Source: an uncultured Acidobacteriota bacterium
Lineage (GTDB): Bacteria; Acidobacteriota; Thermoanaerobaculia; UBA5066; Gp7-AA6
NCBI GenBank assembly: GCA_963776755.1
Contig: CAVZNW010000001.1
Coordinates: 68,866-132,865 of the forward strand
Length of the DNA: 64,000 nucleotides
Direction: 5' to 3'
Part shown: one piece after another, positions 1 to 64,000 of the stretch
Position numbering within the stretch: the stretch's first letter is position 1
How the letters are laid out: each line of letters begins with the position of its first letter
Notes under the pieces: model-generated
The model's database searches: none
Seen by the model: only the letters and a program-made list of their open reading frames with translations
Told to the model about the DNA's origin: nothing
Made by a program: the position numbers and the translations under genes

Positions 1-2054
1 GCGGTGGAGGCCATTGGTCACCCGGCGGGCGCGAGACGAAGCACGCGCCGGCGATGCCCTCGGAGACGAGCCTGTAGACCCAGTCGGAGAAGAGGCCAGG
101 GCATGGAAGGTCGTTGAAATAGCCCGGAGGCGTGCACGGCGGCGGCGCGTATGGAGGGTCGTTCTTGGCCTTGAGGAGGAAGACGGCCATCTGATCGCGT
201 CGGACGGCGCTTTCCCGGCAAAAGCTCCCTCCGCCGCAGCCGGCGGTGATTCCGCTGCGGAGCATGTTCTCGACGTCGGCGTGGAACATGTCGTCCTGGG
301 GCACGTCCAGGAAATCGGCCATCCAGCCGGCCGGAAGCGAGGCGCGTGGCCACGGAGCGGGTGGATCGTCGGTCGCGGGCTGGTCACGGTAACGTCGTGG
401 AGCGTGCCCGGCGAGAGCGGCGGCATCGTCGCGCGGATGGTCGAGGAATCGATGACGACGACTCCTGCGGCCGGTACTCCGCCGATCGTCAGCAAGGCAT
501 CGGGTAGAAGCCGCTTCCCGAGACCGTCACGAGCGTTCCGCCGTCGGCGGCGCCGGACCAGGCGCAGACGCCCAGGATCTGAAGCGAAGACGGACTGCCC
601 GTCGTCACGGCCAGGCAGGCGGAGAACTCCGAGGATCGTTCCGCGGCTCGTCACGACGGAGCCCGGTCCGAGCGAGACGGGCAGCACGGCCGAAAAGCTC
701 GCGTTGCCGCCGGCGTCGGTGTTCACGGTCGTCGAGCCGATCGGGGTGGCACCCTCGCCGTAGCCCGAGTCGTCGCACGCGTCGTCGGTAAAGAACTCGA
801 TCGGGATTCCCACGACGTTCGGCAGGCCGTTCAGGGTCCCGAGGATCGTCGTGGATCCCCCGGAAGCAGCGGCGACGCTCAGAGGATCGGGTAGTTGTCG
901 CGGCCGTCGTCGACATTCGGGGTCACGCCGTCGTCGCCGAGGTCGATTCCCAGGCCCGCGTTGGAGTGGATGCGTTGGATCGGAATCGAGACCGGGAGGT
1001 CGGTGCACGCTGGTCGCGACACCGGCACCGAGGTTGTGGGCGATGACATTTCCTGTCGACGGCGTCGGGGCCGCCGATCCTGACGAGAGTCGTTGGGTCC
1101 AACGGCGCCGCTGCTCGTGATCAAGACGCCATGGCCTCCGTTGGGCATGGCCGCCGTGCCCTCGGCATTGGTCCCGATGACGTTGCCCTGGATCGTCACC
1201 GGGAGGCCGAAATCCCCACCCAGTGTGATCCGGATGCCATCGAGAGTTGCACCCGAGATGACGTTGCCGGGTGGCGTACCCGCCGGCATGGCCGGGCCTC
1301 CGACGAGGACCGTGTTTCCGTAGCCCTCGAATCCGAGGTCGATGTTGACCAGATTGGGCAACGCGACCGCGCCCGTCGCATCGACTCCAACGAAGTTGCC
1401 CTGAATGATCGCGCCGGCCACGTGCTCGATCCCCAGGCCGTCGTTGCCCGAGATGACGTTGCGCTGCGCAGGTAGAGAGCCGCCGATCGTGGGGCCGCCG
1501 ACGCCGCGAACGCCCACCGCATTGGCGCGGGTGCGGGCGGCCGTTCCCGTCGGGTCCGTGCCGATGAAACAGCCTTCCAGCCGAGAGCCGGCGCCTCCCA
1601 CGAAGACATTGCGCTGGAAGCGGTTGATGACGAGACCCCGTATCGTCGTGCCGTGCGACCGTGGCGACGACCCGTCGCCCAATCCGTCGCCCTCGCCCGC
1701 GAGTTCGCCGCTGATCTCGATCAGGAGAACGGCGTCGTCGCTCGTGAGCTGCGTGTTCGGGCTGGCGCCGGGCTGCGTGTAGCCGTCGATGGTCGTCCCT
1801 GCGGCCTCGATGCGCAGCGGACTGGTCGGCCGGATCGTGTGGACACCGGCACCCGGGATGTTGAAGGCGATCAGGTCGGTGCCAGCGTTGCTCTCGTTGG
1901 CGTCCAGGATCGCCTGACGCAGCGAGCCGGGGCCGGAGTCGTTGGTGTTGGTCACGGTGAACGTGGCGGCCGAGAGCGCCGCGCTCGATGCGAAAAGCAT
2001 GATCGCGGCCCGGACCCTGCGCCGCGCGTCGAGCATCCGAAGTACTCCAGCCAT
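1..2054 (-). pseudogene. P1: array paralog (signal peptide, GSLRQA N-cap, short parallel beta-helix, Ig-like, IPT, SLH-like repeats). The 3' end leaves the window and the frame is broken several times below 879.
   Basis: Track ORF 879..2150 holds [29 protein letters not shown]|[29 protein letters not shown] coils and ..[12 protein letters not shown], then TGA at 876-878. Ig-like (IEFFTDDACDDSGYGEG), IPT (GGTLVTVSGSGF; TIGGVPAAGVVVIDSSTIRATMPPLSPGTLHDVTVT) and SLH-like ([64 protein letters not shown]) pieces continue in different minus frames. Breaks lie near 877, 645, 500 and 370. Confidence 0.7.
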
Positions 2055-2202
2055 GGTCCCACCGTCCCTTCTTCGCGACGCACTGTGGCGCGCGGGGACG
2101 GCCCGAGTCCGGAGGCGGGGGTGAGATCTTCGTGAGATGACGAGGGCCACGCCGCGGCCAGGGGGCCGGGCGGGCGGCTCACGTCCCTCGCGGGCCGGCC
2201 GG

Positions 2203-4446
2203 CTACTGGAGCTTGAAGGTCTTGACCACGAACACGGCCATCTGGCCGCGGGTGTTCGAGTTGAGCGGGCAGTAGGTGTTCACGCCGCAGCCGCCGGTGA
2301 TGCCCTCGGCGGCGAGCTGCTCGATCCAGACGGCGAACGGGGAGGAGCAGGAGACGTCGGTGAACACGCCGGCGCAGGGCGGCGGCACGAAGCCGGAGCC
2401 GTGCTCGGCCTTCATCAAGAATACGGCCATCTGGTCCCGCCGGACCGGCTGGGTCGGGCAGTAGTTGGTTCCGCCGCAGCCGCCGGTGATGCCCTCGGCG
2501 GCGAGCCGTTCGATCCACGGCGAGAACGGATTGCTGCACGGGACGTCTGTGAAGATCCCGGCGCACGGCGGCGGCGTGAAGCAGACTCCGTGCTTGGCCT
2601 TCAGCAGGAAGACGGCCATCTGCTGGCGCAGCGTCGCCTGGTCCACGCCGTAGAGCCCGTTGCCGATGCCGGCCGCGACGGCATTCGAAACGAGCGTCGT
2701 CACGAAGGCGTGGAACTGGTGCGCGGCGGGCACGTCCAGGAAGTCCGACACCCAGCCGCTCACGAGCGTGCCGGGCGTCCCGTCCGGCGTCGTCACGACG
2801 ACGTCGTTGACGGTTCCCGCCGGGAGGGCCGGGGAAGTGAAGGCGAGGGAGACGTCCGACGGGACGGACACTCCCGTGGCGGCGGCGCCGCCGACCGTCA
2901 CGACGGCCGGCCCGGCGAGATCGGTGCCGGTCCCCGTCACGACGGTTCCGCCGGCGGCGGGCCCGGAGGACGGCGTGATGGAGAAGAGGATCCGCTGCGA
3001 AAACTCCGAGGTGTTGCGCAGTCCGGCCGTCGGCGTGGCAGTCGCCGAGACGCGGACGCCGGCGTCGGTCGAGGCGAGGGCGAAGTCGAACGTCGCGTTG
3101 CCCGAGCCGTTGGTCGTGACCTGCCTGGTGTCGAACCAGTCCTCGCCCTCGAGGAACTCCCGCGGGAACCGGGCGCACGGCGGGTTGGCGTAGAAGTCGA
3201 GATCGAACGTCGCATCGGGCGAGCTGCGGAACTTGCCCACGACGTGCGTGACGAACGACCCTTCCGCGACGCCGGTCTCGTGGGTGACGGACCGGATGAT
3301 CGGGAAGTTCTGGATGCCGTCGGACTCGTCGTCGTTCGGCGTGGGCACCCCGGAGCCGTCGTACGCGATCCCGAGGAGCGCGTTGTCGTGGATGGAGTTG
3401 CCGCGCACCCGCACGTTCTCGGCCGCCGTCGACAGCAGCGCCCCGTTGACCGTCGCATAGGCGATCGTGTTGCCCTCGCCGGGCGCGACGCCGCCGATCG
3501 CGACATTCGTCGAGGCGTTGAAGAAGTTGAAGTTCCCGCCGTTCGTCAGCGGCAGCGTGCCGGTGGCATCGGTCCCGATCCGGTTGCCGAGAATGGTGAT
3601 GTCCGTGGCCGGCGCCAGCGACACGTTGAACGCGCCGTCGTTGCCCGAGATGACGTTGCCGTCGCCGATGAAGGGGCCGCCGATGATGATGTTGTCGGCG
3701 CCGCTGAGCCGGATGCCGTCGTCCTGGTCCGCGACGGCCGCGGTGCCCTGGGCGTTCGTGCCGATGTAGTTGCCGAGGATGAGGACGTTGGAGGCGAACT
3801 CGACCGAGATGTTGCCGATCGCGTGGCCCGAGATGACGTTGCGGTCCTGGGCATCGGACCCGCCGATCGTGGTTAGGCCCCCTGCGGCCACCGGCTGGTC
3901 GTTTCGTCCCAGGGGTTCGAGGCCGAGGACGATGCCGTAGTCCTGATCGATGGTGGCCGAGTCCGAGCCGTCCGGAAGCAGCCCCAGGAAGTTGCCTGCG
4001 ATGAAGCTTCCGACGGCCCCCGAGGAGAGCGCGATCTGGTTGCCGAATCCGTGGATCACGAGCCCCCGGACGACCGACTGGGAATGCTCGATCTGCAGGC
4101 CCGTGGAGAGGCTGCCCGGTCCTCCATCGAGCTCGATCAGCAGCACTGCGTCGTTGCCGATGAGCTGCGTGTTCGCGTGCGAGCCGGGCTGCGTATAGCC
4201 GTCGATGGTCACGATGAACTCGAGAGGCGGCAGCGCCGTCGCCGGCGTGATGGTGTGCACGCCCGGCCCGGGGATGTTGAACGAGATGGTCGAGAAGTCG
4301 ATGTCGCCGTTGGCGTCGATGATCGCCTGGCGCAGCGATCCCGGGCCCGAGTCGTTCGTGTTGGTGACGGTGAAGGCCCCGGCGAGAGCGGGGGCGGCGG
4401 CGAAGGCGGCAAGGACGATCCCGGCAGCGATCCGGACGACTCGCAT
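2203..4446 (-). CDS. P2: secreted modular surface protein (signal peptide, GSLRQA/CSLREA-like N-cap, parallel beta-helix repeats, Ig-like + IPT/TIG, 3x SLH-like C-terminus)
   Basis: 747-aa in-frame segment of track ORF 2203..6270. AAGGAG lies 7 nt before ATG 4446. [23 protein letters not shown]|[23 protein letters not shown]; many GN.IGT..G coils; [15 protein letters not shown]; IPT-like [16 protein letters not shown]; three F.DVP...[16 protein letters not shown]...R.QMAVF repeats; ends VKTFKLQ-stop. The track ORF upstream of 4446 is an Arg/Pro-rich off-frame read of P3. Confidence 0.9.
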
Positions 4447-4556: not shown

Positions 4557-6979
4557 CTACTGGAGGCTGAACGTCTTCACGATGAACACGGCCATCTGGC
4601 CCCGCGTGTTGGGATTTCCCGGGCAGTAGTTGGTGCCGCCGCAGCCGCCCGTGATGCCTTCGGCGGCGAGCCGCTCGATCCAGTTCGCGAAAGGCGAGGG
4701 GCAGGCGACGTCGGTGAAGACGCCCGCGCAGCCGGGAGGCACGTACGCCGAGCCGTGCTCGGTCTTCAGCAGGAAGACGGCCATCTGGTCGCGGCGGACG
4801 GGGTTGGTGGGGCAGTAGTTGGTGCCCCCGCAGCCGCCGGTGATTCCCTGCGCGGACAGGGCCTCGATCCACGGGGCGAACGCGCTCGGGCACGGCACGT
4901 CGGTGAAGATGCCCGCGCACGGCGGCGGCACGTAGCAGATGCCGTACTTGGCCTTGAGCAGGAAGACGGCCATCTGCTGGCGCAGCGTGCTCGAGGCGAC
5001 GCCGTAGTTGCCGCCGCCCACGCCGGCCGTGATGCCGTTGGAGACGAGGGTCGTGACGAAGCCGTGGAACTGATGGTTGAGCGGAACGTCGTTGAAGTCG
5101 GTGACGTAGCCCTTGGACAGCGTTCCCGCGGACCCGTCCAGGTTGGTCAGCGTCACGTCGCTGAGCTGCCCCGCCTGCAGGGCCGGCGTCCGCCCTTCGA
5201 CCTGCGTCGAGCTCTGCACGAGGATGTCGGTCGCGGGGAGTCCTCCGACCGTGATCGTCGCTCCGGCCGCGAAGTTGGTGCCGCGGACCACGAAGAGCAG
5301 TCCGGCCGGGGGCGCTCCCGAAAGCGGGCTGATCGAGAACACGAGGCGAGGCGTGAGCTCCGACGTGTTTCCGTTCGGGTCCGTCGCCGTCGTGGTGACG
5401 CGCTGGCCCGCTTCGATCGTGTAGGCCAGCGTGACGTCGAACGCGGCGTGTCCCGCTCCGTCGGTCGAGAGGTCCGAGGAGCCGATGTAGACGAGGCCCT
5501 CCTCGAAATCGTGGGGGCGGCCCGCGCACGCCGGGTTGGCGAAGAAGTCGAGCGCATACGTCGTGGAGGGCTTGCTGTCGAGAGTTCCCGTGACCTCGGT
5601 GCCCGTGGGCGAAAGCGGCGCCGCCGAGGCCACGAGCGGATAGTTCTGCAGGCCGTTCGCTCCGGTGTCGGCGTCCAGGACGTCGTTGGCGGTCACGCTG
5701 TCGCTTCCGAGATCGATGCCGATCGTGCCGTTGGCGTAAATCGAGTTGCCCCGGATGGCGTTGCCGGCGATGGAGCCGAGCAGGACGATGCCGCCGACTC
5801 CGCTGTGCGCGACCACGTTGCCTTCTCCCGGCGCCGTGCCGCCGATGGTCGAGTTGCTTCCGAAGACGGCGATGCCGCGGTTCTGATTGCCGAGGGCGAA
5901 CGAGCCGGTGAGGTCGGTCCCGATGAGGTTGCCCTTGACGACGACGCCGGTGACGCCGCCGGAGATCGACATTCCGTCGATGGCGTTGGCGGAGATGACG
6001 TTGCCCGCCCCCGCGGCCGAGCCGCCGATCGTGCTGCCGCTGGCCTCGACCAGGATTCCGTAGTTGAGGTTGGGAAGCGGTCCCATCCCGGTGACATCCG
6101 TGCCGATGAAGTTCCCGCTCACGACGAGGCCCGACCCGTTGTTGAGCCGGATGCCGTAGCTCCCGTTGCCCGACACGACGTTGCGGCTGGCCGGGTTGGT
6201 GCCTCCGATCGTGATGTTCAGCTGGAGGAGTTGTCGATTTCGATTCCGCTCTGCGCCCCCCCGATGGCATTCCCGCCCGAGGCGTCCGTGCCGACGAGAT
6301 TGCCCTGGATCAGGTGCCCGGTGCCGCCGTTGCCGCCCGAACCGAAGTTGATGCCGTTCGTCCCGTTGCCGGAGATCAGGTTGCGCGCGGCCGGAGTCGT
6401 GCCGCCGACCGTGACGCTGGACGGCCCGTTGTTGGCCAGGATCCCGAAGTTGTTGTTTCCGTGGGCGACGGTGCCCGAGGGGTCGGTGCCGATGAAGTTG
6501 CCGTCGATCACCATCCCGGCGACGCCGGAGAGGCGGATCCCCGCGTAGTGGCCGCGATTGATGGCGAGGCCCCGGACGGCGCTGTTGCCGCTGCCGGGCC
6601 CGAAGAAGAGAACGGCGGCATCGCTGCCCAGTCCGGTGTTCGTTCCGTCGATCTCGATGAGGATCACCGCATTGGTCCCCTGGTCGGGCGCGTTGGAGTT
6701 CGCGCTCGCTCCCGACTGGGTGTACCCGTCGATGGTGACTCCGTCCGTGATCGTCGGAAGCGCGGCGGCCGGCACGATGGTCTGGACGCCCGATCCGACG
6801 ATCGCGAAGCCGATCGTGTCGGCGCCGAAGTTCCCGTTGGCATCGAGAATCGCCTGGCGCAGCGACCCGGCGCCGCTGTCGGCGGTCGTCGTCACCGTGA
6901 AGGTCGCGGCGAGGGCGGAGGACGCCGCGAGCAGGGCAAGAGCCGCAAAGAGGGACAGACCCCGGTGCGACGGGCGCAT
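4557..6979 (-). CDS. P3: array paralog, one frame break as assembled (~6225)
   Basis: N-part is track ORF 6218..6979 (MRPSHRGLSLFAALALLAASSALA|[24 protein letters not shown]). C-part is ORF 4557..6176 (beta-helix coils, ANDVLDADTGANGLQNYPL, IPT, 3 SLH-like repeats, ends VKTFSLQ-stop). The junction ..GIEIDNSSS-stop / [20 protein letters not shown] needs a 1-nt correction. Length 2423 nt is not a multiple of 3. Confidence 0.85.
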
Positions 6980-7081: not shown

Positions 7082-9288
7082 CTACTGGAGACCGAAGGTC
7101 TTGGTGATGAACACGGCCATCTGCCCCCGCGTGTTGGGGTTGCCCGGGCAGTAGTTGCCGCCGCCGCAGCCCCCGGTGATGTTCTCGGCCGAGAGCTGCT
7201 CGACCCAGTTGGCGAAGGCCGAGGGGCAGGGGACGTCGGGGAAGGCGCTCGCGCAGGCGGGAGGCAAGTAGCTCGAGCCGTGCTCGGCCTTCAGCAGGAA
7301 GACGGCCATCTGGTCGCGCCGCACCGGGCTCCCGGGGCAGTAGTTGCCGTTGCCGCAACCCCCGGTGATGCCCTCGGCGGCGAGGGCCTCGATCCAGTCG
7401 GCGAATGGGGAGGGGCAGGCGACGTCGCCGAAGGCTCCCGCGCAGGACGGGGGCGTGTAGCAGAGACCGTGGCGGGCCTTGAGCAGGAAGACCGCCATCT
7501 GTTGGCGCAGCGTCGGCTGGTCGACGCCGTAGTTGCCGCCACCCACGCCCGCGGTGATGCCGTTGGCGACGAGGGTCGTGACGAAGGAGTAGAACTGCTG
7601 GTTGCCGGGGACGTCGAGAAAGTCCGCCACCCAGCCGTTGACCAGCCTCCCTTCCGTCGCGTCGGGCGTCGAGACCCAGATGTCGTTGACCGTTCCGGGA
7701 TCGCGCGCGGGGGTCGTGGCACTGAGCTGGTGGTCGTTCACGAACGTGGTGGCGATTTGGACGCCTCCGATCTGCATGATCGTCGGGTCGGAGAAATCGG
7801 TGCCCGAGACGCTGATGCTCGTGCCTCCCGCGGCCGGGCCGGACCTGGGGCCCAGCATCGAGAAGATGATCCGCTGCGAGAATTCGGACGTGTTGCCGCT
7901 CGGGTCGGTGGCGGTCACCGAGAGGCGGGCGCCGAGCTCGACGTCGACCGTCAAGCTGGCGACGAAGCTGGCGTGCCCGCTGCCATCGGTCGTGACCGGC
8001 CAGGTTCCGATGTAGGTTGCGCCCTCGAGATACTCGCGCGGGAAGTTGGAGCAAACCGAGCTCGCATAGAAGTCGAGATCGAACGTCGTCGAGGGCGTGC
8101 TGTCGAGCTTCCCGCCGATGATCAGGGTGGGCCCGTAGCTCACCGACTGGATGATCGGAAAGTTCTGGAGACCGTTCGCGCCGTTGTCGGCGTCGGTGGA
8201 ATCGTTGAAGTTCGGCTGCCCGTCGCCGTTCAGGTCGATGCCGAGGCCGCCGTTGTCATGGATCGTGTTGCCCCGGATGACATTGCGTTGACCCGAGTTC
8301 GAAACGAGGACGCCGGCGCCCCCGTTGTAGGCGATCGTGTTGGCGGCGCCATCTGCGAGCCCGCCGATCGTGGCGTCGTTGGACTCGTGGATGTTGATCC
8401 CGCCGAGCGCATTGCCGAGCGGCGCCGTGCCGTCGGCGGTCGTGCCGATCCGATTGCCCTGGAAAACGACGGCCGCCTGCAGGAAGACGGCGTAGAGACT
8501 GTTGCCCGAGATCACGTTTCCGGCGCCCGGCGCGGTTCCGCCGACGGTCGCCGGGGCGTTGGAGTAGAGGCCGTCGGCATTGGGGAGGGCGTGCATGCCC
8601 GTGGCGTCCGTGCCGATGAGGTTGCCCTGGACGTGAGATCCCGCCGCCCCGCCGACGATCTGAATCGCTCCCGCGAAGATGCCGGCGGTGTTTCCCGACA
8701 CGAGATTCCGGTCGGCCGGCGCCGTTCCGCCGACGAGATCGCCGGGGGCGTTGATCTGGATCGCGACGTTGTTGGGGCTGGCGGCCATGCCGGTGGGATC
8801 GGTTCCGAAGAAGCATCCGCGGATGACGTTGCCGCCGCCGGCGCCGGGGTTGAACGTCTGTAAGCCCATGAGCCAGCGATTGACGACCAGGCCCTGGACC
8901 GTGCTGTTGCCCCCGGTGATGTTCAGCCCGAGCCCGTTGGTCACGAGGCTGCCGTCGAGCTCGATTCGAAGGACGGCGTTCGTCCCGACCGGGTCGGTGT
9001 TGACGCTCGATCCGGGCTGCGTGTATCCGTCGATCAGGACGGGGCCGGTCAGGAACGGCAGTGCCGTCGCCGGAGTGATCGTGTGGACGCCCGTGCCCGG
9101 GATGTCGAAGGCGATCGTGTCTGCGCCCGGATCGCGTTGGCGTCGAGGATCGCCTGGCGCAGCGACCCGGCGCCCGAGTCGTTCGTGTTGAGGACCGTGA
9201 AAGTCGCGGCGGAGAGAGGGCCCGCCGAAGAGAGAAGCCAAAGGATCGGAAGGAAGAGACGGACGAGAGACGGGATTCGAATCCTCAC
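7082..9288 (-). CDS. P4: array paralog, one frame break as assembled (~9132)
   Basis: GTG 9288 has AAGGAG 6 nt upstream: MRIRIPSLVRLFLPILWLLSSAGPLSA|[25 protein letters not shown]. The read then slips (..AAC GCG A-T CCG GGC.. is one base short of DANANPGADTIAFDIPG) into track ORF 7082..9241, which carries beta-helix coils, NDSTDADNGANGLQNFPII, IPT and 3 SLH-like repeats and ends ITKTFGLQ-stop. Confidence 0.85.
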
Positions 9289-9351: not shown

Positions 9352-9648
9352 CTAGCGCCGGGGCGGGGCGCGAGAGGAGAGCGATTCGGACCGAGCCGGA
9401 TCGCGGAGGGCGTCAGCGCCGTGAGCGTAAACGCCGCCGACGTGCCCCGGCGGGGGCGCCTGCGGGCCCGGGACGGTCTCGAGGATCGCGTCCGCCGGCG
9501 CATGCGAGGTGGGCGCGGTGCCCGACTCGAGGCGGCTTTCGTCGTCCTCGAGGAGTGCGTCCCCGGTCGGACCGTACTCGAGCGGGAGGAGGACGAGGGA
9601 TATCAGGACGATCAGGATGACGGCGGGAACGGCCCAGGGCCTTTTCAT
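9352..9648 (-). CDS. Small (98 aa) N-terminally anchored membrane or secreted protein, acidic and Pro-rich tail, unknown function
   Basis: [43 protein letters not shown]... Its ATG overlaps the P5 stop (ATGA at 9645-9648). It ends at TAG 9352-9354, 63 nt before the P4 start. It is the tail of an off-frame track ORF (9352..10995). Confidence 0.55.
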
Positions 9649-12124: not shown

Positions 12125-12154
12125 TTAACGCGACAGCCTTCGGAGGAACGCCTC

Positions 12155-14564: not shown

Positions 14565-15457
14565 TTACTGAAGGCCGAAGGTCTTAGTGATGAACACGGC
14601 CATCTGACCGCGGGTGCTGGTGCCGTCGGGGCAGTAGAGGGGAGGTGACGCCTGGCAGCCGCCGGTGATGCCTTCGACGGAGAGTCGCTCGATGAAGTCG
14701 ACGGCGGCCGCGCCCGGGCAGGCGACGTCGTCGAAGACGCCGGCGCAGGCGGGCGGCACGTAGCTCGAGCCGTACTTGGCCTTCAGCAGGAAGACGGCCA
14801 TCTGCCGGCGGGTGACGAAGTTGTTGGGGCAGAAGTTGCCGCCGCCGCATCCGGTCGTGATCCCCTCGGCCGCCAGAGCCTCGATCCAGTCGGCGAAGGT
14901 GGAGGGGCAGGGGACGTCGGGAAAGACGTTGGCGCACGGGGGAGGGACGTAGCAGAGGCCGTACTTGGCTTTCAGGAGGAAGACGGCCATCTGCTGTCGC
15001 TTCGTGCCCTGGTCGACGCCGTAGAGGCCGCCGCCGACCCCCGCCGTGATGCCGTTGGACACGAGGGTGACGACGAAGGCGTGGAAGCCGTGTGCCGAGG
15101 GCACGTCGAGGAAGTCCGACACCCAGCCCTTGATCAGCGTCGCCGTCGTTCCGTCGGACGTCGTGGCGACGACGTCCTGCGAGGTTCCCGGAGCGAAGGC
15201 GGGCATGACGCCGCTCAGCTGATGGTCGTTGACGAACGTCACACCCGTGGCTGGAATGCCGCCGACGGTCAGCGTCGTCGGGTCGGCGAAGTCGGTGCCG
15301 GAGGCGGTGAAGGGAGTTCCTCCGGTATCGGGGCCCGAAGCGGGTGAGATCGAGAAGAGGATCCGCTGCGAGAACTCGGACGTGTTGCCGTTGGGGTCGG
15401 TGGCGGTCGCCGCGATGCGCGCCCCGGCCTCCGTCGCCACGGGCAGCGTGACGTCGA
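14565..15457 (-). repeat. 3' module of P7, about 90% identical (by eye) to the P8 3' module
   Basis: Aligns base for base with 16610..17503 apart from scattered, mostly third-position differences and one extra base in P8. Similarity drops abruptly upstream of ..GACGTCGA. Confidence 0.8.
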
Positions 15458-16609: not shown

Positions 16610-17503
16610 TTACTGAAGGCCGAACGTCTTGACGATGAAGACCGCCATCTGTCCGCGGGTGCTGGTGCCGTCGGGGCAGTAGAGGGGAGGCGAGGCCTGG
16701 CAGCCGCCGGTGATTCCCTCGACGGAGAGCCGCTCGATGAAGTCGACGGCGGCCGCTCCCGGGCAGGCGACGTCGTCGAAGATGCCGGCGCAGGCCGGCG
16801 GAACGTAGCTGGAGCCGTACTTGGTCTTCAGGAGGAAGACCGCCATCTGCCGCCGGGTGACGAAGTTGTTGGGGCAGAAGAAGCCGCCGCCGCAGCCGGT
16901 CGTGATGCCCTGGGCCGCGAGCTCCTCGATCCAGTCGGCGAAGGTGGACGGGCAGGGGACGTCGGGGAAGACGTTGGCGCAGGGGGGCGGGACGTAGCAG
17001 AGGCCGTACTTGGCTTTCAGCAGGAAGACGGCCATCTGCTGGCGCTTGGTGCCCTGGTCGACGCCGTAGAAACCGCCGCCGACGCCCGCGGTGATGCCGT
17101 TGGAGACGAGGGTGACGACGAAGGCGTGAAAGCCGTGTGCCGCGGGCACGTCGAGGAAGTCCGAGACCCAGCCCTTGATCAGCGTCGCCGTCGTTGCCGT
17201 CGGACGTCGTGGCGACGACGTCCTGCGAGGTGCCCGGAGCGAAGGCGGGCATGACGGCGCTGAGCTGATGGTCGTTGACGAAGGTGACGCCCGTGGCGGG
17301 AACGCCGCCGACGGTCAGCGTCGTCGGGTCGGCGAAGTCGGTGCCGAAGGCCGTGAACGGCGTGCCTCCGGTATCCGGGCCCGAAGCCGGTGAGATCGAG
17401 AAGAGGATCCGCTGCGAGAACTCGGACGTGTTGCCGGCGGGGTCGGTGGCGGTCGCGGCGATGCGCGCCCCGGCCTCGGTCGCCACCGGCAGCGTGACGT
17501 CGA
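16610..17503 (-). repeat. 3' module of P8, partner of 14565..15457
   Basis: See the P7 repeat entry. Confidence 0.8.
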
Positions 17504-55803: not shown

Positions 55804-58209
55804 CTAGAAGAGCGAGAACGTCTTGGTGACGAAGACGGCCATCTGTCCCCGCGTGACCGGATTGGCGGGGCAGTACACGTCCACGCCGCAGCCGCCCGTG
55901 ATGTTGGCATTGGCCAGCGCCTCGATCCAGTCGGCGAAGGGCGAGGGGCACGGCACGTCGGTGAAGATCCCGGTGCACGGCAGCGGGACGTGGTCCGCCC
56001 CGGCGCGAGCCTTGATCAGGAAGACCGCCATCTGCTCCCGGCGCACGGGGCTCTGCGGGCAGAAGTTGCCGCCGCCGCAGCCCCCGGTGATGCCGTCGGC
56101 CGCGAGCGCCTCGATCCAGCCGGAGAACGGCGACGCGCACGGGACGTCCGCGAAGACGCCGGTGCAGGCCGGCGGCACGTAGCAGATGCCGCGCTTGGCC
56201 TTCATCAGGAAGACAGCCATCTGCTGGCGCGTCGTGACGGCGGCGACACCGAAATTCCCCCCGCCCACTCCGGCGGAAACGCCGTTCGTGACGAGGCGCA
56301 CGACGTAGTCGTGGAACGCGTGGGCGGCCGGAACGTCCAGGAAGTCGGAGAGCCAGGAGGACTCCAGGCTGGAGCCCCCGTTCGGAGGATTGCTGGCGAC
56401 GACGTCGTAGACGAGGCCGGCGGGCAGAGCCGGCATGGTCCCGGTCAGGAGCGAGTAGTCGACGACGTTGATGTTCGTGACGGGAAGTCCGGCCACGGTG
56501 ATGACCGTGGACGGTCCGAAATCCATGCCTTCGATCGTCACGGGAGTTCCTCCCTCGGGAGGCCCGGACTGCGGGTCGATCGAGAGGATCATCCGCTGCG
56601 AGAACTCCGACGTCCGTCCCTGAGGGTCCGTCGCCGTGGCCGTCATGGCCTCGCCGGCCTGGAGCTGGTATGGGACGTCGGTCAGGAAGCTGACCTTGCC
56701 GGCGCCATCGGTCGTCAACTGAATCGAGCCGACGTAGTGTTCGCCCTGCTGGTATCCCCAGGGCCGGAAGTGGCACGAGGGCCCGGCGAAGAAATCCACG
56801 TCGAACGTGGTGGACGGCGTGCTGTCCAGGAACCCGAAGACCGACGTCGCTCCGGTCGTGACGACCACGTTGGTGATGACGGGGAAGTTCTGCGATGCGT
56901 TGGGGCCGCCGTCGAGGTCGCCCGGGTCGTTCGGCGTGACGGCGCCGCCCGAGCGGCCGTTCAAGAGGTCGATGCCGAGGTAGAGGTTGTCGAAGATGCG
57001 GTTGCCGCGGATCGTGACGACGGGGCCGCGGACGTGGATGCCGCCGATCGTGGAGAAGAAGATTCTCCCGTTGTGCGCGATGACGTTGCCTTCGCCGGCC
57101 CCCGTGCCGCCGACCAGGATGCTTCCGTTCTCCTCCAGGGCGTAGATGCCGCCGCCGGGGTTGCCGAGGGCGAGCGTGGCCGTCTCGTCCGTTCCGATGA
57201 AGTTGCCCTGGATCACGGAGCTCGACAGCTCGAGCGAGATCCCGGCGTTGCCCTGGCCGGCGATGACGTTGCCGCGGATCGAGGGCGACGCGTTCACGAC
57301 CTCGATGCCGACCGAATCGCCGATGGCCTGCGTTCCGGTGACGTCCGTCCCGATGAAGTTGCCGATGACGGAGCCGGAGGCGTCGGCGTTCGAGACGATC
57401 ACGGCGGTGTCGCCGACCCCCGAGATGACGTTGCGCGAGGAGACGTCGGGGCCTCCGACCATGGCGAACGCGGCGACGTCGAGCAGCAGACCCTGGCCGT
57501 AGATGCCGTCGGCGCCGGCAATGCGCGCGTTGCCGGCGGCATTGGTTCCGATGAGATTCCCGCGGATCCCGAGGAAGGCCGCGGTGTCGGTGACCACGCC
57601 CGCGGTGGTGTGGCCGCTGATGAGGTTGCGTTCGAAGGGAAGCGATCCTCCGATCCCGACGAAGAGCGCGTTGACGATCCGGACGCCGAAGCCCTGCGGG
57701 CCCGGGACGCTCGTGCCGGTCGGGTCGGTGCCCAGGTAGTTCCCAACGATGAGCGCCCCGTCGCCCCCGGTTCCGACGTGGATCGCGCCGACCGGGCAGC
57801 GGTTGATGACGAGGCCCTGGATCGCCATGACGAGGAGCTTGTCGTTGCCGGCGTAGACCTGGAAGCAGGGCTCGGAGACCGCGCCGGTGCCGTCGATTTC
57901 GATCTGCATCGTCGCGTTGAGCCCCTGGCCGGTCGGGTTCGTGTTGAGGGTCGAGCCCGGCTGGGTGAAGCCGTCGATGATGACCGGCTGGGTGATCGGA
58001 GGCAGCCCGGAGGCGAGCGCGATGGTGTGGACGCCCGCGCCCGGGATCGCGAACGCGATGTCGTCGTTGCCGAACGAGCCGTTGGCGTCGAGAATCGCCT
58101 GGCGAAGCGACCCGGGGCCGGAGTCGCTGGTGCTGATGACGGTGAAGGTCGCCGCGAAGGCGGGCGCGGCGCTCAAGACGGCGACGACGAGGATCGAGAG
58201 ACGCTTCAT
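55804..58209 (-). CDS. P20: array paralog, intact (801 aa)
   Basis: GGAGGA SD. MKRLSILVVAVLSAAPAFA|[24 protein letters not shown]..; coils; TPNDPGDLDGGPNASQNFPVI; Ig-like; IPT; SLH-like x3; ends VTKTFSLF-stop. It is the last in-frame segment of track ORF 55804..60513. Confidence 0.92.
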   Translation of the reverse strand: MKRLSILVVAVLSAAPAFAATFTVISTSDSGPGSLRQAILDANGSFGNDDIAFAIPGAGVHTIALASGLPPITQPVIIDGFTQPGSTLNTNPTGQGLNATMQIEIDGTGAVSEPCFQVYAGNDKLLVMAIQGLVINRCPVGAIHVGTGGDGALIVGNYLGTDPTGTSVPGPQGFGVRIVNALFVGIGGSLPFERNLISGHTTAGVVTDTAAFLGIRGNLIGTNAAGNARIAGADGIYGQGLLLDVAAFAMVGGPDVSSRNVISGVGDTAVIVSNADASGSVIGNFIGTDVTGTQAIGDSVGIEVVNASPSIRGNVIAGQGNAGISLELSSSVIQGNFIGTDETATLALGNPGGGIYALEENGSILVGGTGAGEGNVIAHNGRIFFSTIGGIHVRGPVVTIRGNRIFDNLYLGIDLLNGRSGGAVTPNDPGDLDGGPNASQNFPVITNVVVTTGATSVFGFLDSTPSTTFDVDFFAGPSCHFRPWGYQQGEHYVGSIQLTTDGAGKVSFLTDVPYQLQAGEAMTATATDPQGRTSEFSQRMILSIDPQSGPPEGGTPVTIEGMDFGPSTVITVAGLPVTNINVVDYSLLTGTMPALPAGLVYDVVASNPPNGGSSLESSWLSDFLDVPAAHAFHDYVVRLVTNGVSAGVGGGNFGVAAVTTRQQMAVFLMKAKRGICYVPPACTGVFADVPCASPFSGWIEALAADGITGGCGGGNFCPQSPVRREQMAVFLIKARAGADHVPLPCTGIFTDVPCPSPFADWIEALANANITGGCGVDVYCPANPVTRGQMAVFVTKTFSLF

Positions 58210-58250: not shown

Positions 58251-60513
58251 TTACTGCAACCCGAACGTCTTGACGATGAAGACCGCCATCTGACCGCGGC
58301 TGGCGCTCGTCAGGGGGCAGTAGTTGCCTCCGCCGCAGCCGGCCGTGACGTTGCGGGCGACGAGCTCGTAGACCCAGGCCGCGAAGGGATTGGAGCACGG
58401 CACGTCGGCGAAGCTCGCCGCCGTGCAGGCCGGCGGGGCATAGCCCGGGGCCTCGAAGGTCTTCAAGAGGAAGGCCGCCATCTGCTGGCGATTGACCGGA
58501 TTCAACGGGCAGAAGAGACCGCCGCCGCAGCCGCCGGTGATGCCCTGGGCGACGAGCTCGTTGATCCAGGGCGCAAAGCCCAGGGAGCAGGGGACGTCGG
58601 TGAAGACCTGGGTGGTGCAGGGGGGCGGGGTGTAGCAGACGCCGTTCTTCGCCTTGAGCAGAAAGACGGCCATCTGCTGCCGCAATGTGTTCTGGCCGAC
58701 GCCGTAGTTGCCGCCTCCCACCCCGGCCGTGATCGCGTTGCGCACGAGCGTCGTCACGAAGGAGTAGAACTGCTGGTTGCCCGGGACGTCCAGGAAGTCC
58801 GCGATCCAGCCGTTGGGCAGCGTGCCGACGGTGCCGTCCGTGTTGGTGACGACGATGTCGTTGAGGCTTCCGGGAAGGAGGGACGGAGTCGTCAGGGTGA
58901 TCGTGCCGTCGTCGACGACGTTGACGTTGGTCGCGGCCGTGCCGCCGACCTTGGCCGTCGCGCCGGCGAGAAAGTGAAATCCGGCGAGCGTCGTCGAAAC
59001 GCCGGAGGGGTTGCCCGAGGAGGGCGTCGCCGTCAGAACGAACCGCTGTGAGAACTCCGACGTGTTGCCGTCGGGATCCGTCGCGGTGGCCGAGACCTTC
59101 TCTCCCGCCGCGAGGACGACCCCCGTGAGCACCGCGTGGATCGTGGCATTGCCGCTGCCGTTCGTCGTCACATCCGTGGTGCCGATGTAGGTCCGTCCCT
59201 GAAGGAAGTCCTGCGGGCGTCCGACGCAGGAGTCGTTGACATAGAAGTCGATGGCGAACTGGGTGTTCGCCGTGCTGTTCAGGACTCCGTCGATCGTCGT
59301 GTCGCCTCCTGCGGAGACCGCGGACGACAGAAGCGGAAAGTTCTGGAGGAGGTTCGGTCCGATGTCCGCATCTCCGAGGTCGTTCGGCGTGAGCCCGCCC
59401 TGGCCGAACCCGCCCGGGTTCCCGAGATCGATGCCGAGGGTCGAGCGGAAATTGGTGCCGTTCGCGGTGCCGTTGCCGTAGATGGAGTTGCCGCGGATCC
59501 GATTGTGGAAGGTGTTGATCGTGCTGTACGACACGAGCACGCCGGCCCCCTGGTTGAACGCGACCACGTTCCCCTCGCCCGGCCCGGTGCCGCCCACCTG
59601 GATGTCCTTCCCCTGGACGAAGATCCCGATGTCCCTCGTGCCGAGATTGATGGCCCCGGTCACGTCCGTACCGACCCAGTTGTGCAGGATCGTCTTGCCG
59701 GTCGCGGCGTCGTTGGACGTCTCCGACCTGGAGTCCCGCGTTTACGCCGCCCACCACATTGTCTCGAATCACCGCGTCGGGTGTTTCCGAGAACATGCCG
59801 ATGCCCGAGAGGGCCGTCCCCCCGAACACGGCGGTGCTCGACTTGTTGACTCCGACCAGGTTGCCCTGGACGAGCGTGTTGGCGCCGTGACCGATCGTGA
59901 TGCCGGACTGGGCGTTTCCCGAGATCAGGTTGCGATCGGCGGGCGCCGGTCCCCCGACGGTGAAGTTGTCGCCGAACTGGGAGTCGACCCCGCGGATGTT
60001 GGGTGAGCCGGGCACCGAGGTGCCCGCGGCGTCGGTGCCGATGAAGCAACCCTTCACCGAGCCGCCGTTGCCGGCGAAGTAGAAGCTGATCGCGTAGTCC
60101 CAGCCGCCGTTCAGCACGATCCCGCGGATCGTCGAGCCGTCGGCGCCGGTCGAGAGTTGGAGTCCGGTCGAATGTGTGGTCGCTCCCGACAGCACGATCT
60201 TGAGCACGGTGTTGAGCGCGCCCTGGGCGTTGGTGTTGACCAGCGAGCCGGGCTGCGTGTAGCCGTCGATGAGGACCGGGCTGGAGATCGTCGGCAACTG
60301 AGAGGTCGGCGTAATCGTGCAGACGCCGCCACCGTCGCAGCCCGCGTCCGATATGTTGAACGCGATCGTGTCGAGGCCCGCGGCGGCGTTGGCGTCGAGG
60401 ATCGCCTGGCGGAGCGTCCCCGGGCCGGAGTCGTTCGTGTTGGTGACCGTGAACGTCGCGGCGGCCGCCGTCGACGCGGATGCCGCGAGAGCGAGAGCCA
60501 AGAGACTGCGCAT
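58251..60513 (-). CDS. P21: array paralog, mosaic (P22-like body, P19/P23-like tail), one frame break (~59715)
   Basis: AGGAGG SD, ATG 60513: MRSLLALALAASASTAAA|[42 protein letters not shown].. up to ..AGLQVGDV. Then ORF 58251..59663 (..NDAATGKTILHNWVGTDVTGAINLG...), ending IVKTFGLQ-stop. Confidence 0.88.
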
Positions 60514-60534: not shown

Positions 60535-62859
60535 CTATTGCGATCCGAACTTCTTGACGGTGAGGCGACCACCCGAGGCAGACCCACGGTTCGACTTCAC
60601 TGAAGATGAGAACGTCTTGACGATGAAGACGGCCATCTGGCCGCGCGTGTTGTTGCTCGAGGGGCAGTAGTTGTTGCCGCCGCAGCCCCCGGTGATCTGC
60701 TCGGCCGCGAGTTGCTCGATCCAGTCGGCGAAGCCCGACGGGCACGGGACGTCGTCGAAGGTTCCGGTGCAGCCCGGGGGCGCGTAGGCCGAGCCGTGCT
60801 TGGCCTTGAGGAGGAAGACCGCCATCTGGTCGCGGCGCACCGGGTTCTGCGGACAGTAGATGCCGGTGCCGCAACCGCCGGTGATGCCTTCGGCGGCGAG
60901 GGCCTCGATCCAGTTCGCGAACGTCGAGGGACAGGGGACGTCGCCGAAGACGCCCGTGCACTGGGGCGGGACGTAGCAGACGCCGAACTTTCCCTTCAGG
61001 AGAAAGACGGCCATCTGCTGGCGCAGCGTCGGAGCGTTGACGCCGTAGTTGCCTCCGCCGACGCCGGCGGTGATCTGGTTGCGCACGAGCGCCGTCACGA
61101 AGAAGTAGAACTGTTGCGCGCCCGGCACGTCGAGGAAGTCGGCGACCCAACCGTTGGTCAGGGTCGACGCGCTGCCGTCGGTGTTGGTCACGGTGATGGA
61201 GTTGACGGTGCCCGGGGGCAGGGCCGGCGTGGTCACGTCCATCGAGGTGTAGCCGTTCACGTCGACGTTGGAAGCCGGCAGGCCGCCGACCGTCGCCGAG
61301 GCCCCCGCGAAGAAGTGGAAGCCCGTGAGGGTGGTGACGATGCCGCCCGCCGGGCTGCCCGAGGCGGGATTCGACGAGAGGACGAAGCGCTGGGAGAACT
61401 CGGACGTGTTGTTCGACGGATCGGTCGCCGTGGCGGTGACCCTGTCGCCGGGGCCGAGCGCGATCGGCAGCACCGTGTTGATGACGGCGTGGCCGTTGCC
61501 GTCGGTGGTCACGGTGTCCGTCCCGATGTAGCTCTGCCCCTCTCGGAATCCCTGCGGACGGCGCAGGCACGCGGCGTCGGCGTAGAAGTCGATCGCAAAC
61601 TGGGTGCTGGGGACGCTGTCGAGCGTTCCCTGGATCGTCGTGCTGGGGGTACCGGTGGGCAAGGCGGTCACGGCCGACGCGATGAGCGGGTAGTTCTGGT
61701 GGTCGTTGGGCCCGGCGTCGCCGTCTCCCTGGTCGTTCGCCGTCGGACCGCCCTGGCCGGAGGTGCCCGGATCCCCGAGGTCGATTCCGAGCGTCGAGAA
61801 GTTCCCGGCGCCGTCCCCGATGCCGTTCGAGTAGATCGCGTTGCCGCGGATCGGGTTCTGGCGCGGCTGCGGCGTGTCGTACGCGACGAGCACTCCCGCG
61901 CCCAGATTGAACGCGATGACGTTGCCTTCGCCGGCGCCGAGGCCGCCGATGGTGACCTGGTTCGTATCGACCAAGATCCCGTCGCGCAGGTTGCCGAGCT
62001 CGGCAGTGCCGGTCACGTCGGTCCCGACCCAGTTGCCCTGGATCGTCATGCCGAAGACCGTGTCGGAGCCCATCTGACCGACATGGATTCCGTAGCTGCC
62101 TGCGGCCGCCACGACGTTCTCGCGCACGGCGGTTCCGGGCGAATCGACGCCGATTCGCAGGCCGACGGATCCCGACCCGATCGACGCCGCCCCGGAGGCG
62201 TCGGTCCCGATGAGATTGCCCTGCACGAGGCCGTCCGTGCAGCGCTCGAGCTTGGCGCCGTTCGAGATGTTTCCCGAGATCAGGTTCCGGTCGGCGGGCG
62301 CCGGGCCGCCCACCACGATGCCGGTCCCGAGATAGGCGAACAAGCCGATGTCGTTCGGGACGGCCGCCGATCCGGAGGCGTCGACGCCGATGAAACAGCC
62401 GCGGAAGGAGACGTTGTCCGAGGAGTTGGAGCCGACTCCGAAGCCGAAACCGTTGACGACGAGGCCCCGAATGGTGACGTCGTCGGAGGTGGCGTAAAGG
62501 CCCCAGGAGAAGGGGAGGTTGACGCCCGAGAGGACGATCTTGAGAACCGCGTCGGTCGCGCCCTGCGCGATCGTGTTGGGCGACGCGCCGGGCTGCGTGT
62601 AGCCGTCGATCGTCACGGGGTCGGTCACGTTCGGCAGCGGGAGCACGGGAGCAATCGTGCAGACGCCCGAGCCGTCGCACCCCGCGCCGGTCACGTTGAA
62701 CTCGATCGTGTCGGCGCCCGCGTTCCCGTTGGCGTCGGTCAGCGCCTGCCGGAGCGAGCCGGCGCCCGAGTCGTCGGTGTTGGTGACGGTGTAAGTGGCG
62801 GCCGGTAGCGTTCCGGCGAGCAGCGCGAGGACGGCGGCAACCCCGAAGCGTCGCATCAT
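60535..62859 (-). CDS. P22: array paralog, intact ORF (774 aa) with a 21-codon read-through extension after loss of the family stop
   Basis: MMRRFGVAAVLALLAGTLPA|[42 protein letters not shown]... It ends ..[34 protein letters not shown]-stop. One extra base at ~60607 moves the usual ..TFSLQ-TGA (latent TGA 60597-60599) out of frame. Confidence 0.9.
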   Translation of the reverse strand: MMRRFGVAAVLALLAGTLPAATYTVTNTDDSGAGSLRQALTDANGNAGADTIEFNVTGAGCDGSGVCTIAPVLPLPNVTDPVTIDGYTQPGASPNTIAQGATDAVLKIVLSGVNLPFSWGLYATSDDVTIRGLVVNGFGFGVGSNSSDNVSFRGCFIGVDASGSAAVPNDIGLFAYLGTGIVVGGPAPADRNLISGNISNGAKLERCTDGLVQGNLIGTDASGAASIGSGSVGLRIGVDSPGTAVRENVVAAAGSYGIHVGQMGSDTVFGMTIQGNWVGTDVTGTAELGNLRDGILVDTNQVTIGGLGAGEGNVIAFNLGAGVLVAYDTPQPRQNPIRGNAIYSNGIGDGAGNFSTLGIDLGDPGTSGQGGPTANDQGDGDAGPNDHQNYPLIASAVTALPTGTPSTTIQGTLDSVPSTQFAIDFYADAACLRRPQGFREGQSYIGTDTVTTDGNGHAVINTVLPIALGPGDRVTATATDPSNNTSEFSQRFVLSSNPASGSPAGGIVTTLTGFHFFAGASATVGGLPASNVDVNGYTSMDVTTPALPPGTVNSITVTNTDGSASTLTNGWVADFLDVPGAQQFYFFVTALVRNQITAGVGGGNYGVNAPTLRQQMAVFLLKGKFGVCYVPPQCTGVFGDVPCPSTFANWIEALAAEGITGGCGTGIYCPQNPVRRDQMAVFLLKAKHGSAYAPPGCTGTFDDVPCPSGFADWIEQLAAEQITGGCGGNNYCPSSNNTRGQMAVFIVKTFSSSVKSNRGSASGGRLTVKKFGSQ

Positions 62860-63021
62860 GAGGGCCCCCTGTGTTGGCCGAAAGATTTCACGGTCGGGGG
62901 GCCCAACGGAAGGGCCGATCCGGCGGTCCCGGCCCGCCGCCGGCCCGTTCGGACGCGGGTCAGAGGCCCCGGTGACTTTCCGATGCCCCGCGGCGAGGGA
63001 TCCGATCCTCGCGGAGCGGCC

Positions 63022-64000
63022 TCACTGAAGACCGAACGTCTTCACTATGAAGACGGCCATCTGGCCGCGGTTGGCGTTGGTCAGGGGGCAGTAGTTGCCG
63101 CCGCCGCAGCCGGCCGTGATGTTGCGGGCGACGAGCTCGTAGACCCAGGACGCGAAGTTCGACGTGCACGGCACGTCCGCGAAGGTCGCCGCCGTGCAGG
63201 CGGGCGGGGCGTAGCCCGGGGCCTCGTAGGTCTTGAGGAGGAAGACGGCCATCTGCTGGCGGTTGACGGGATTGGACGGGCAGAAGAGGCCGCCGCCGCA
63301 ACCGCTGGTGATGCCCTGGGCGACGAGCTCGTTGATCCAGGGCGCGAAGCCCAGGGAGCATGGGACGTCGGTGAAGACCTGCGTCGTGCAGGGGGGCGGC
63401 GCGTAGCAGATACCGTTCCTGGCCTTGAGCAGGAACACCGCCATCTGCTGGCGCAGGGTGGGCTGGTCTACGCCGTAGTTGCCCGCCGCCGACGCCCGCC
63501 GTGATCGCGTTGGTCACGAGGGTCGTGACGAACGAATAGAACTGCTGGGCCGGAGGAACGTCGAGGAAGTTGGACACGAAGCCTTTCTCGAGTGTTCCCG
63601 TCGTTCCCTCCGTGTTCGTCACGACGACGTCGTTGAGGGTGCCGGCGGCGAGCGCCGGCGACGTCGCCGTGATCTGGTTGAAGTTGCCTACGACGACGTT
63701 GGTCGCGGGCTGCCCGCCGATCGTCACCGTGGCACCGGCTTCGAAGTCGGTGCCCGCGATCGTGACCGCGGTGCCGCCGGCCGACGGGCTAGATGACGGC
63801 GCGATCGTGAAGGGCAGCCGCTGCGAAAACTCGGACGTGCTGCCGGACGGGTCCGTCGCCGTCATGCTGATGCGCTCGCCCGCGGCGATCGAAACCGGAA
63901 GCGTCACGTCGAAGGCCCCCTCGCCCGCGCCGTCGGTCGTCGCCTGGCCCGAGCCGAGATACGTCCGACCCTCGAGGAAGTCCTTCGGGAATCGGACGCA
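63022..64000 (-). CDS. P23: array paralog, 5'-truncated by the window end, one frame break (~63482)
   Basis: ORF 62960..63907 (..ITLPVSIAAGERISMTATDPSGSTSEFSQRLPF.., IPT, ..FLDVPPAQQFYSFVTTLVTNAITAGVGGG) plus ORF 63022..63444 ([57 protein letters not shown]-stop). CCC at 63482-63484 corresponds to CC in the P21 copy. Confidence 0.85.

Follow-up and report, generated by a model that had tools for sequence, protein, structure and literature searches.

Envelope proteins that combine a shared anchor with a variable part are encoded in several different ways in bacteria. In Bacillus, the genes of proteins with S-layer homology (SLH) domains are mostly scattered and their passengers differ. The Cwp/slpA cluster of Clostridioides difficile encodes a multigene family in which three wall-binding repeats of the CWB2 type are joined to a variable domain. 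Many of its members, about a dozen genes, lie together in the same orientation; the passengers are mutually unrelated and no ECF43 sigma factor/kinase pair is embedded among them. In Campylobacter fetus, the sap locus spans less than 65 kb and groups several coat genes that are homologous and share conserved ends; it is organised as one promoter on an invertible segment together with promoterless cassettes. The locus described here lies in a stretch of 64,000 nucleotides from an uncultured soil Acidobacteriota bacterium of the Thermoanaerobaculia (GenBank assembly GCA_963776755.1, contig CAVZNW010000001.1, positions 68,866 to 132,865), hereafter called the window, and contains 23 co-directional genes for SLH-tailed beta-helix proteins, numbered here as units 1 to 23 in the direction of transcription. 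With a probability that we put at roughly 0.6, the locus is a real tandem array, maintained in evolution and comprising at least 23 paralogs, that encodes an SLH-anchored envelope binding repertoire under the control of sigma factors and kinases.

The array has features in common with each of these systems and departs from all of them. Like Sap and EA1 of Bacillus anthracis and SpaA of Paenibacillus alvei, the window proteins carry three SLH repeats in a three-pronged arrangement (template-modelling (TM) scores of 0.71-0.85 against 3pyw, 6bt4, 6cwc and related SpaA structures), keep the Thr-Arg pair of the TRAE motif, and join a conserved anchor to a variable functional part. They differ in that the SLH module is C-terminal and Cys-rich, the host has two membranes, and a single passenger architecture recurs in at least 23 paralogs within one array. 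The Cwp cluster follows the same logic, but the anchor is SLH here and more than 23 near-uniform units are present. In contrast to the C. fetus sap locus, neither an invertible promoter segment nor promoterless cassettes were found in the window, where 22 of 22 unit 5' ends have a start codon and a leader.

The sequence-only reading of this DNA could not match the array to a described system, yet its proteins belong to a very large family that is already deposited and unstudied. A word-indexed search returned at least 7,962 homologs, and an exhaustive search 16,014 representatives of 50%-identity clusters at E<=1e-30. Database names include 'S-layer homology domain-containing protein [Thermoanaerobaculia]', 'parallel beta-helix repeat protein' and 'hypothetical protein'; the literature search turned up no paper that deals with this family, with SLH proteins of Thermoanaerobaculia or with arrays of this kind. 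Outside the SLH-tailed group, the best-scoring relatives are giant proteins of 2,000-7,900 amino acids (P0121-P0268), of which the named ones are from Verrucomicrobiota and which are annotated as 'right-handed parallel beta-helix repeat-containing', 'Calx-beta' or 'GEVED domain-containing'. They have in common with the window the cassette made of N-cap, helix, acidic loop and Ig-like module (unit 14 residues ~24-538, ~42-47% identity), which is repeated in one polypeptide in 10-40 matched stretches at most; among the matches listed, the similarity stops at about residue 620, before the SLH repeats. In the window, each cassette instead has a gene, a leader and an SLH anchor to itself. What is new is that SLH-anchored beta-helix proteins have undergone, in a two-membrane bacterium, a tandem expansion that is lineage-specific and has regulators embedded in it; the domain types are known.

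The window has a G+C content of 67-74%, and raw lists of open reading frames (ORFs) are swamped by spurious frames. A first pass of motif scans and of tblastn searches with uninterrupted copies detected motif copies on the minus strand only. An alignment of the ten units with uninterrupted ORFs was split into seven modules (N-cap, helix, loop plus Ig-like module, TIG module and SLH1-3), and hidden Markov models (HMMs) of these modules were run against every stop-free fragment, in all six frames, of the whole window. They matched 22 N-caps, 23 loop-plus-Ig modules, 23 TIG modules and up to three SLH repeats per unit in 23 units, with E-values of 1e-10 to 1e-108; every match lies on the minus strand and none on the plus strand. 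Assigning exact start and stop codons yields 21 complete units of 2037-2470 nt and two partial ones, units 1 and 23. Unit 1 is cut off at its 5' side and unit 23 at its 3' side, so that the array extends past both ends of the window. The summed length of the units is 51.6 kb, or 81% of the window, and the order of modules is the same in all 23, namely signal peptide, N-cap, beta-helix, acidic loop, Ig-like module, TIG module and three SLH repeats. Each gene encodes one protein of ~750-800 amino acids with an N-terminal signal-peptide-like leader, and its beta-helix is of the right-handed parallel type. The sequence-only reading had claimed 23 co-directional units of 2.0-2.45 kb, uniform in module order and covering about 52 of 64 kb, all of which is borne out; it had not flagged that more than half of these units contain frame breaks, only ten being uninterrupted ORFs.

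The units form three co-directional blocks: unit 7 closes block 1, and units 8 and 15 open blocks 2 and 3. Spacers within blocks measure 8 nt in four cases and 15-220 nt in thirteen, so that the range of 8-220 nt given earlier was nearly right (17 spacers); it missed three longer ones: 321 nt with an SLH relic, 356 nt with a small ORF and 438 nt with a GNAT gene. In the 8-nt spacers a TAA or TAG stop codon runs straight into AGGA or GGAGG, followed by ATG, which implies co-transcription. Each of the 22 unit 5' ends has a start codon, a Shine-Dalgarno-like purine run and a leader; in units 6 and 7 the signal peptide can be read only by hopping between frames. The operon-like blocks that had been proposed agree with the four 8-nt spacers and with a hairpin and T-run terminator after unit 8. 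Between 27 and 46 kb, terminator-like sites are not more frequent than expected from shuffled sequences, and this is the sole convincing intrinsic terminator (42747-42766, minus strand; GAGGGGGC-TGAG-GCCCCCTC followed by TTTT). Given its place directly after unit 8, that unit may be transcribed alone.

Domain searches on five units identify the anchor. The SLH family PF00395 is matched by all five at 32.9-66 bits (cut-off 20.8), and PF00395 matches are precomputed for most database homologs. TIG (PF01833) reaches 22.7-38 bits in three units (cut-off 20.9), 17.3 bits in one and gives no match at E<=0.01 in the last; in a profile search, the TIG module matches the IPT domains of Met and plexin. 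Beta_helix (PF13229) is above its 25.9-bit cut-off in two units (26.5 and 43.5 bits). Two further families that had been put forward fell away: NosD (PF05048) stays under its Pfam cut-off of 23.6 bits (17.4-21.4 bits), its NCBIfam model TIGR04247 scoring 5-14 bits against a cut-off of 300, and CSLREA (TIGR04214) gives no NCBIfam match with full-length units at E<=0.01 or with N-terminal halves at E<=10, the resemblance of GSLRQAI to CSLREA being by eye only. Even at E<=10, the N-terminal half matched no choice-of-anchor or other specific NCBIfam family.

An AlphaFold2 model of unit 14, built with 49 homologs, has a predicted local distance difference test score of 88.7 and a predicted TM score of 0.86. 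It comprises a disordered leader (residues 1-22), a regular three-stranded beta-helix (27 to ~405), a low-confidence acidic loop (415-433), two beta-sandwiches (438-525 and 539-619) and three helical SLH repeats (631-799), each a helical pair, which assemble into the canonical three-pronged module. Foldseek searches of the PDB align the tail with the SLH domain of B. anthracis Sap (3pyw, TM 0.85, root-mean-square deviation 2.7 A) and also with that of P. alvei SpaA (6cwc/6cwh at TM 0.75-0.79). The helix resembles phage capsule depolymerase tailspikes, the mannuronan epimerase AlgE4 and alginate lyases, at identities of 7-17%; its best fold match is PDB 8wm1_A, labelled 'DHS dehydratase' (E 4e-17, 17% identity), a protein not identifiable from the literature. 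Pfam, the model and Foldseek together support the beta-helix, IPT/TIG and triple SLH calls made from the sequence alone.

Across the 49 homologs, conservation is concentrated in the anchor and in the acidic loop. The TR.Q motif (TRRQ) aligns with the Thr-Arg of the TRAE motif of the Sap SLH domain, and the corresponding arginines R659, R722 and R788 are invariant in all three repeats. The SLH region also contains nine invariant and two nearly invariant cysteines (unit 14 residues 674-781, window positions 27374-27760), with a Cys-containing insert in repeats 2 and 3, whereas repeat 1 often has Gly or Val in place of Cys. The conservation pattern implies several disulfides per module, and we know of no prior description of such a Cys-rich SLH variant. 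Outside the anchor, the strictly conserved acidic loop ND.GD.D.G.N..QNFP is the most conserved element. In the helix, invariance is practically confined to Gly and Asn; one arginine of the last coils, R396, is the exception.

The closest database proteins to unit 14 are 89%, 86% and 76% identical to it, and the first two, P0001 and P0002, are its orthologs. The contig with the 89% ortholog is referred to as L001, and the neighbourhoods of relatives were read over 10 kb on either side. L001, a second relative (L082) and the window have a common gene order: units, a GNAT gene, units, a cytochrome c peroxidase (CCP)-type di-haem peroxidase, a metallophosphoesterase, a SoxA/TsdA-like cytochrome, kinase, sigma factor, units. 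In L082, the third block is ~11 units longer and terminates at BipA. With the window kinase as query, 80 loci were retrieved. At kinase identities of at least 57%, arrays flank the sigma/kinase pair on both sides in L001-L005, L007, L015, L017 and L051; in L006, family members lie on one side only, and the contig is short on one side. More distant kinase loci are mostly without family members. The related genomes are recorded as uncultured Acidobacteriota or Thermoanaerobaculia, and the synteny that the sequence-only reading had asked to be checked is found in about ten of them. In a self-comparison of the window, no DNA tract between units reaches 90% identity; units 16 and 17 come closest, with 86% over 1433 nt, and for most pairs the value is 65-76%. 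At 65-86% DNA identity, the paralogs are old.

Within this framework the modules diverge to different degrees. Among the ten uninterrupted units, mean pairwise identity is 0.62 for the N-cap, 0.36 for the helix, 0.48 for the loop and Ig-like module, 0.42 for TIG and 0.59-0.67 for the SLH repeats, and helix length ranges from 197 to 327 amino acids; the earlier description as 'conserved ends, variable core' is accurate. The ratio of non-synonymous to synonymous substitution rates (dN/dS) of unit 14 against its orthologs is 0.23-0.34, and that of the neighbouring kinase 0.20. The tested unit 14 ortholog pair is under purifying selection, and positive selection on the helix was not seen in this sole testable pair. 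Compared with the L001 ortholog, dS of unit 14 is 0.08-0.23 over most of its length and 0.49 in the SLH region, and its SLH2-SLH3 segment shares with unit 17 a string of derived residues that is absent from the ortholog. Gene conversion seems to have replaced this tail with the type carried by units 15-17, and the conservation of tails is partly due to concerted evolution. Unit content differs as well, although the genomes are 85-90% identical: unit 13 has no ortholog of more than 52% identity in the matching neighbourhoods of L001 and L082, and both relatives have a different unit (L001 12409-14847, L082 10001-12355) between the unit 14 ortholog and the peroxidase gene. The array thus changes through gain and loss of units and through gene conversion of the conserved tail.

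Two pairs of genes for an extracytoplasmic function (ECF) sigma factor and a Ser/Thr kinase lie on the plus strand inside the array, the sigma gene first and the kinase gene next, as the claim that the array has its own regulators had anticipated. Sigma factor 1 (21131..21718, 195 amino acids) is divergent from unit 15 and sigma factor 2 (45277..45870) from unit 8, so that each faces away from a block-opening unit. Kinase 1 (21715..24159, 814 amino acids) converges on the peroxidase, phosphoesterase and cytochrome genes that follow unit 14, and kinase 2 (45732..48745) on unit 7. Both kinases have a Hanks-type domain, one transmembrane helix and a long TPR-like C-terminal domain; in kinase 1 these are the kinase domain at residues 83-331, the helix at 368-386 and a TPR-like region of ~430 amino acids, and in kinase 2 the C-terminal TPR region is frame-disrupted. 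Both sigma factors match PF07638, the family call for sigma 1 also coming via its ortholog. No anti-sigma factor gene adjoins either sigma gene, and the pairing of sigma factor and kinase is kept in almost all of the 80 related loci.

This arrangement recalls the ECF43 modules EcfP/PknT of Vibrio parahaemolyticus and EcfK/PknS of Xanthomonas citri, in which a sigma gene likewise adjoins the gene of a transmembrane Hanks-type kinase (PMC8999054, PMC13147305). EcfP lacks the DAED motif and is phosphorylated on the second Thr of STTA (PMC8999054). In the window, region 2.2 of sigma 2 reads TLSTTALVHEAY, with STTA at the canonical DAED position, and that of sigma 1 reads TLQPTAVVHEAY, with QPTA and no DAED, both placed by eye and not aligned to EcfP. 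With DAED absent, STTA or QPTA in its place and no anti-sigma gene alongside, the window sigma factors are ECF43-like and putatively kinase-activated. The ECF43 models control polymyxin-resistance or type VI secretion genes, whereas the presumed regulon in the window is the paralog array. That the sigma factors control the blocks is inferred from their position and from the conserved arrangement.

Frame breaks affect 13 of the 23 units, which need at least 29 frame changes in total and at least 1-6 each. Aligned with L001 over 21099-27079 (~85% identity), the window has 40 insertions, 38 of them of one base, and 4 deletions. The insertions lie nearly all within 24164-26604, none of them in a homopolymer, and the neighbouring segments 21131-24159 and 27374-32222 are clean. 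One-base insertions disrupt three conserved single-copy genes (di-haem peroxidase, metallophosphoesterase, SoxA/TsdA-like cytochrome), kinase 2 is scrambled likewise over its C-terminal domain (47300-48745), and one extra base (~32235) hides the TGA stop codon of the GNAT gene. With the module HMMs, broken units score like uninterrupted ones. The assemblies of the closest relatives were made from Nanopore reads only and polished once (PMC12313526), and one close relative likewise has fragmented gene calls. Because the spectrum is patchy and dominated by insertions, and because conserved single-copy genes are hit too, the breaks are most likely long-read consensus errors and not pseudogenes, a warning that frame-broken paralogs in long-read metagenome assemblies can be artefacts.

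On the reading that we favour, the proteins would be exported by the Sec pathway and held non-covalently on pyruvylated wall polysaccharide by the SLH module. The beta-helix, variable in length and sequence, would be the binding surface, and the array would form an envelope-attached, adhesin-like binding repertoire, not one enzyme; the helix would bind rather than catalyse because no catalytic set is conserved. The acidic loop probably binds calcium. The kinase would sense an envelope or external cue through its TPR-like domain and phosphorylate its own sigma factor, and the phosphorylated sigma factor would turn on the adjacent block. Several points weigh against this proposal. Acidobacteriota have an outer membrane, and a Sec signal alone places proteins in the periplasm. 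The fold matches of the helix to polysaccharide-active enzymes leave room for an enzymatic role, and the literature search found no experiment or expression data on any member of the family. An alignment of the sigma/unit intergenic regions from six genomes shows two conserved blocks and no recognisable ECF -35/-10 pair. The motif TAGRNT occurs 32-60 nt upstream of units 5, 6, 8, 14, 21 and 22, looks like an ordinary -10 box and has no proper null. A stricter form, ATAGASTY, shows weak enrichment, with 3 matches where 0.89 would be expected, a number that 3 of 100 shuffles also reached; it was rejected as a promoter on that account. Finally, the attribution of the frame breaks to consensus errors rests on comparison with a genome that is ~85-90% identical, not on reads.

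The position of the proteins relative to the outer membrane bears most directly on this proposal, and the surface or S-layer coat first suggested is uncertain in a two-membrane host. In bacteria with two membranes, as in the Acidobacteriota, SLH domains normally bind wall polymers on the periplasmic side, and those of Thermus, Deinococcus, cyanobacteria and Negativicutes act in the periplasm. In a less likely alternative, the SLH module binds a peptidoglycan-linked polymer from the periplasmic side and the helix and Ig-like stalks work inside the periplasm, for instance as spacers or periplasmic glycan binders; in its favour, the model and domain scans give a Sec-type leader only, with no outer-membrane barrel, lipobox or other sorting signal, and the many invariant cysteines suit an oxidising periplasm. 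A variable repertoire of more than 23 members would, however, be unusual for a structural periplasmic role, and the N-cap-to-Ig cassette is repeated in the giant proteins of 2,000-7,900 amino acids, which resemble extracellular adhesins. A set of wall-tethered polysaccharide lyases, epimerases and hydrolases with differing specificities would fit the likeness of the helix to depolymerase tailspikes, AlgE4 and alginate lyases and the weak Beta_helix and NosD (CASH-type) matches in Pfam. We consider such enzymes unlikely, since the invariant Gly and Asn residues of the helix, R396 apart, leave no conserved set of acid/base or metal-binding residues, the helices range from 197 to 327 amino acids in length, Pfam and NCBIfam scans return no lyase or glycosidase family, and identity to the enzyme structures is just 7-17%. 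The regulators open a further, more speculative option, that of a combinatorial envelope layer in which the transmembrane kinases read external cues and, by way of phosphorylated ECF43-like sigma factors, pick the block that coats the cell while turnover of units and gene conversion of the anchor renew the repertoire. We hold it to be doubtful; if true, this coat-selection logic would be undescribed for any S-layer or adhesin system and would provide a first functional handle on the Thermoanaerobaculia envelope.

Explanations that deny a stably expressed set of genes fare worse. The 29 or more frame changes over 13 units could mean that the array is decaying and that these units are true pseudogenes, but one-base insertions equally break the CCP, phosphoesterase and cytochrome genes, kinase 2 and the GNAT stop codon, an excess of 40 insertions over 4 deletions is unlike a natural mutation spectrum, broken units keep the HMM scores of uninterrupted ones, and the units of relatives are mostly called full-length; decay is accordingly improbable. 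Phase or antigenic variation, with one or a few units expressed through recombination between conserved ends, had been proposed as a 'switchable' coat. Conserved 5' and 3' ends could support such recombination, and one clear gene-conversion tract and unit-end relics in spacers are present. Yet each unit comes with a ribosome-binding site, start codon and signal peptide of its own, so that no silent cassette is apparent. A search for inverted repeats gave only weak, imperfect GC-rich pairs and no invertible promoter segment, no recombinase gene was seen within the window, all units have the same orientation with 8-nt spacers that imply co-transcription, and the tested orthologs are under purifying selection (dN/dS 0.23-0.34 for unit 14). 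Switching is therefore even harder to credit than decay. That an assembly artefact expanded a few copies, the outcome that the sequence-only reading had named as fatal to its proposal, has practically no chance of being correct. Repetitiveness alone speaks for it, whereas DNA identity between units is 65-86% with no tract of 90%, helix lengths and spacers are specific to each unit, and the layout is kept in about ten independent metagenome assemblies.

At least 52 kb is spent on one protein type, close relatives have comparable arrays around the same regulators, and more than 16,000 distinct representatives are on public record; the family is likely to play a major part in the contact of these cells with their environment. 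Soils and sediments are rich in Thermoanaerobaculia and related Acidobacteriota, almost none of which has been cultured. The array also bears on the function of SLH anchors in a two-membrane bacterium, on the regulons of kinase-activated ECF sigma factors beyond two or three model cases, and on the use of one beta-helix cassette as separate anchored genes as opposed to repeats of a giant protein.

The individual units, all on the minus strand, are located as follows. Block 1 begins with the partial unit 1 (63022..64000), of which the window holds the end of the Ig-like module, TIG and three SLH repeats, with one frame change; its 5' part lies outside. Units 2 (60535..62859, 774 amino acids) and 4 (55804..58209) are uninterrupted ORFs. 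The others have the full module set with frame changes: at least one in unit 3 (58251..60513), at least six in unit 5 (53212..55681), at least three in unit 6 (50925..53157), where a frame shift breaks the signal peptide, and at least three in unit 7 (48673..50909), which ends the block and is convergent with kinase 2. Block 2 opens with two uninterrupted ORFs, unit 8 (42793..45180, 795 amino acids) and unit 9 (40281..42692, 803 amino acids). Full module sets with at least two, six and one frame changes follow in units 10 (37524..39959), 11 (35107..37515, separated from unit 10 by an 8-nt spacer) and 12 (32661..35054). The GNAT acetyltransferase gene (32229..32645, minus strand, 94% identical to its L001 counterpart) comes next, then unit 13 (29871..32222), an uninterrupted ORF with a GTG start, and unit 14 (27374..29782), the modelled unit, an uninterrupted ORF of 802 amino acids. 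A sigma-70 consensus scan of 27-46 kb, which covers this block, revealed no promoter.

In block 3, unit 15 (18818..20888) and unit 16 (16610..18809) each need at least one frame change, and units 17 (14565..16601, with the shortest helix of the set), 18 (12289..14556, 755 amino acids) and 19 (9645..12068) are uninterrupted; 8-nt spacers precede units 16, 17 and 18. Unit 20 (7082..9288) has at least one frame change, within the N-cap, and unit 21 (4557..6979) at least one; unit 22 (2203..4446) is uninterrupted. In the partial unit 23 (1..2054), the third SLH repeat is cut by the window end, at least two frame changes are needed, and the scores of the Ig-like and TIG modules are weak.

Remains of other units are visible at several places. 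A degenerate SLH fragment lies downstream of unit 9 (40152-40238), a remnant resembling an '...RTFNLQ' end with its stop codon at ~12120-12160, and the extra 22-codon tail of unit 2 (60535-60604), beyond the usual C-terminus, looks like a relic of another unit's 3' end of the '...KKFGSQ'-plus-stop type. These 3'-end relics suggest past unequal crossing-over or deletions.

Three smaller features complete the picture. When the extra base in the GNAT gene is removed, its TGA stop codon and the GTG start of unit 13 share bases (GTGA), and the two genes may be translationally coupled. A small ORF (9352-9651, minus strand) of ~100 amino acids with an N-terminal hydrophobic helix follows unit 19, its ATG overlapping the stop codon of that unit. 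Between block 2 and kinase 1, the three-gene set at 24200-27246 (minus strand) encodes a CCP/MauG di-haem cytochrome c peroxidase, a calcineurin-like metallophosphoesterase and a SoxA/TsdA-type cytochrome c, and the same set occupies the same position in two relatives.

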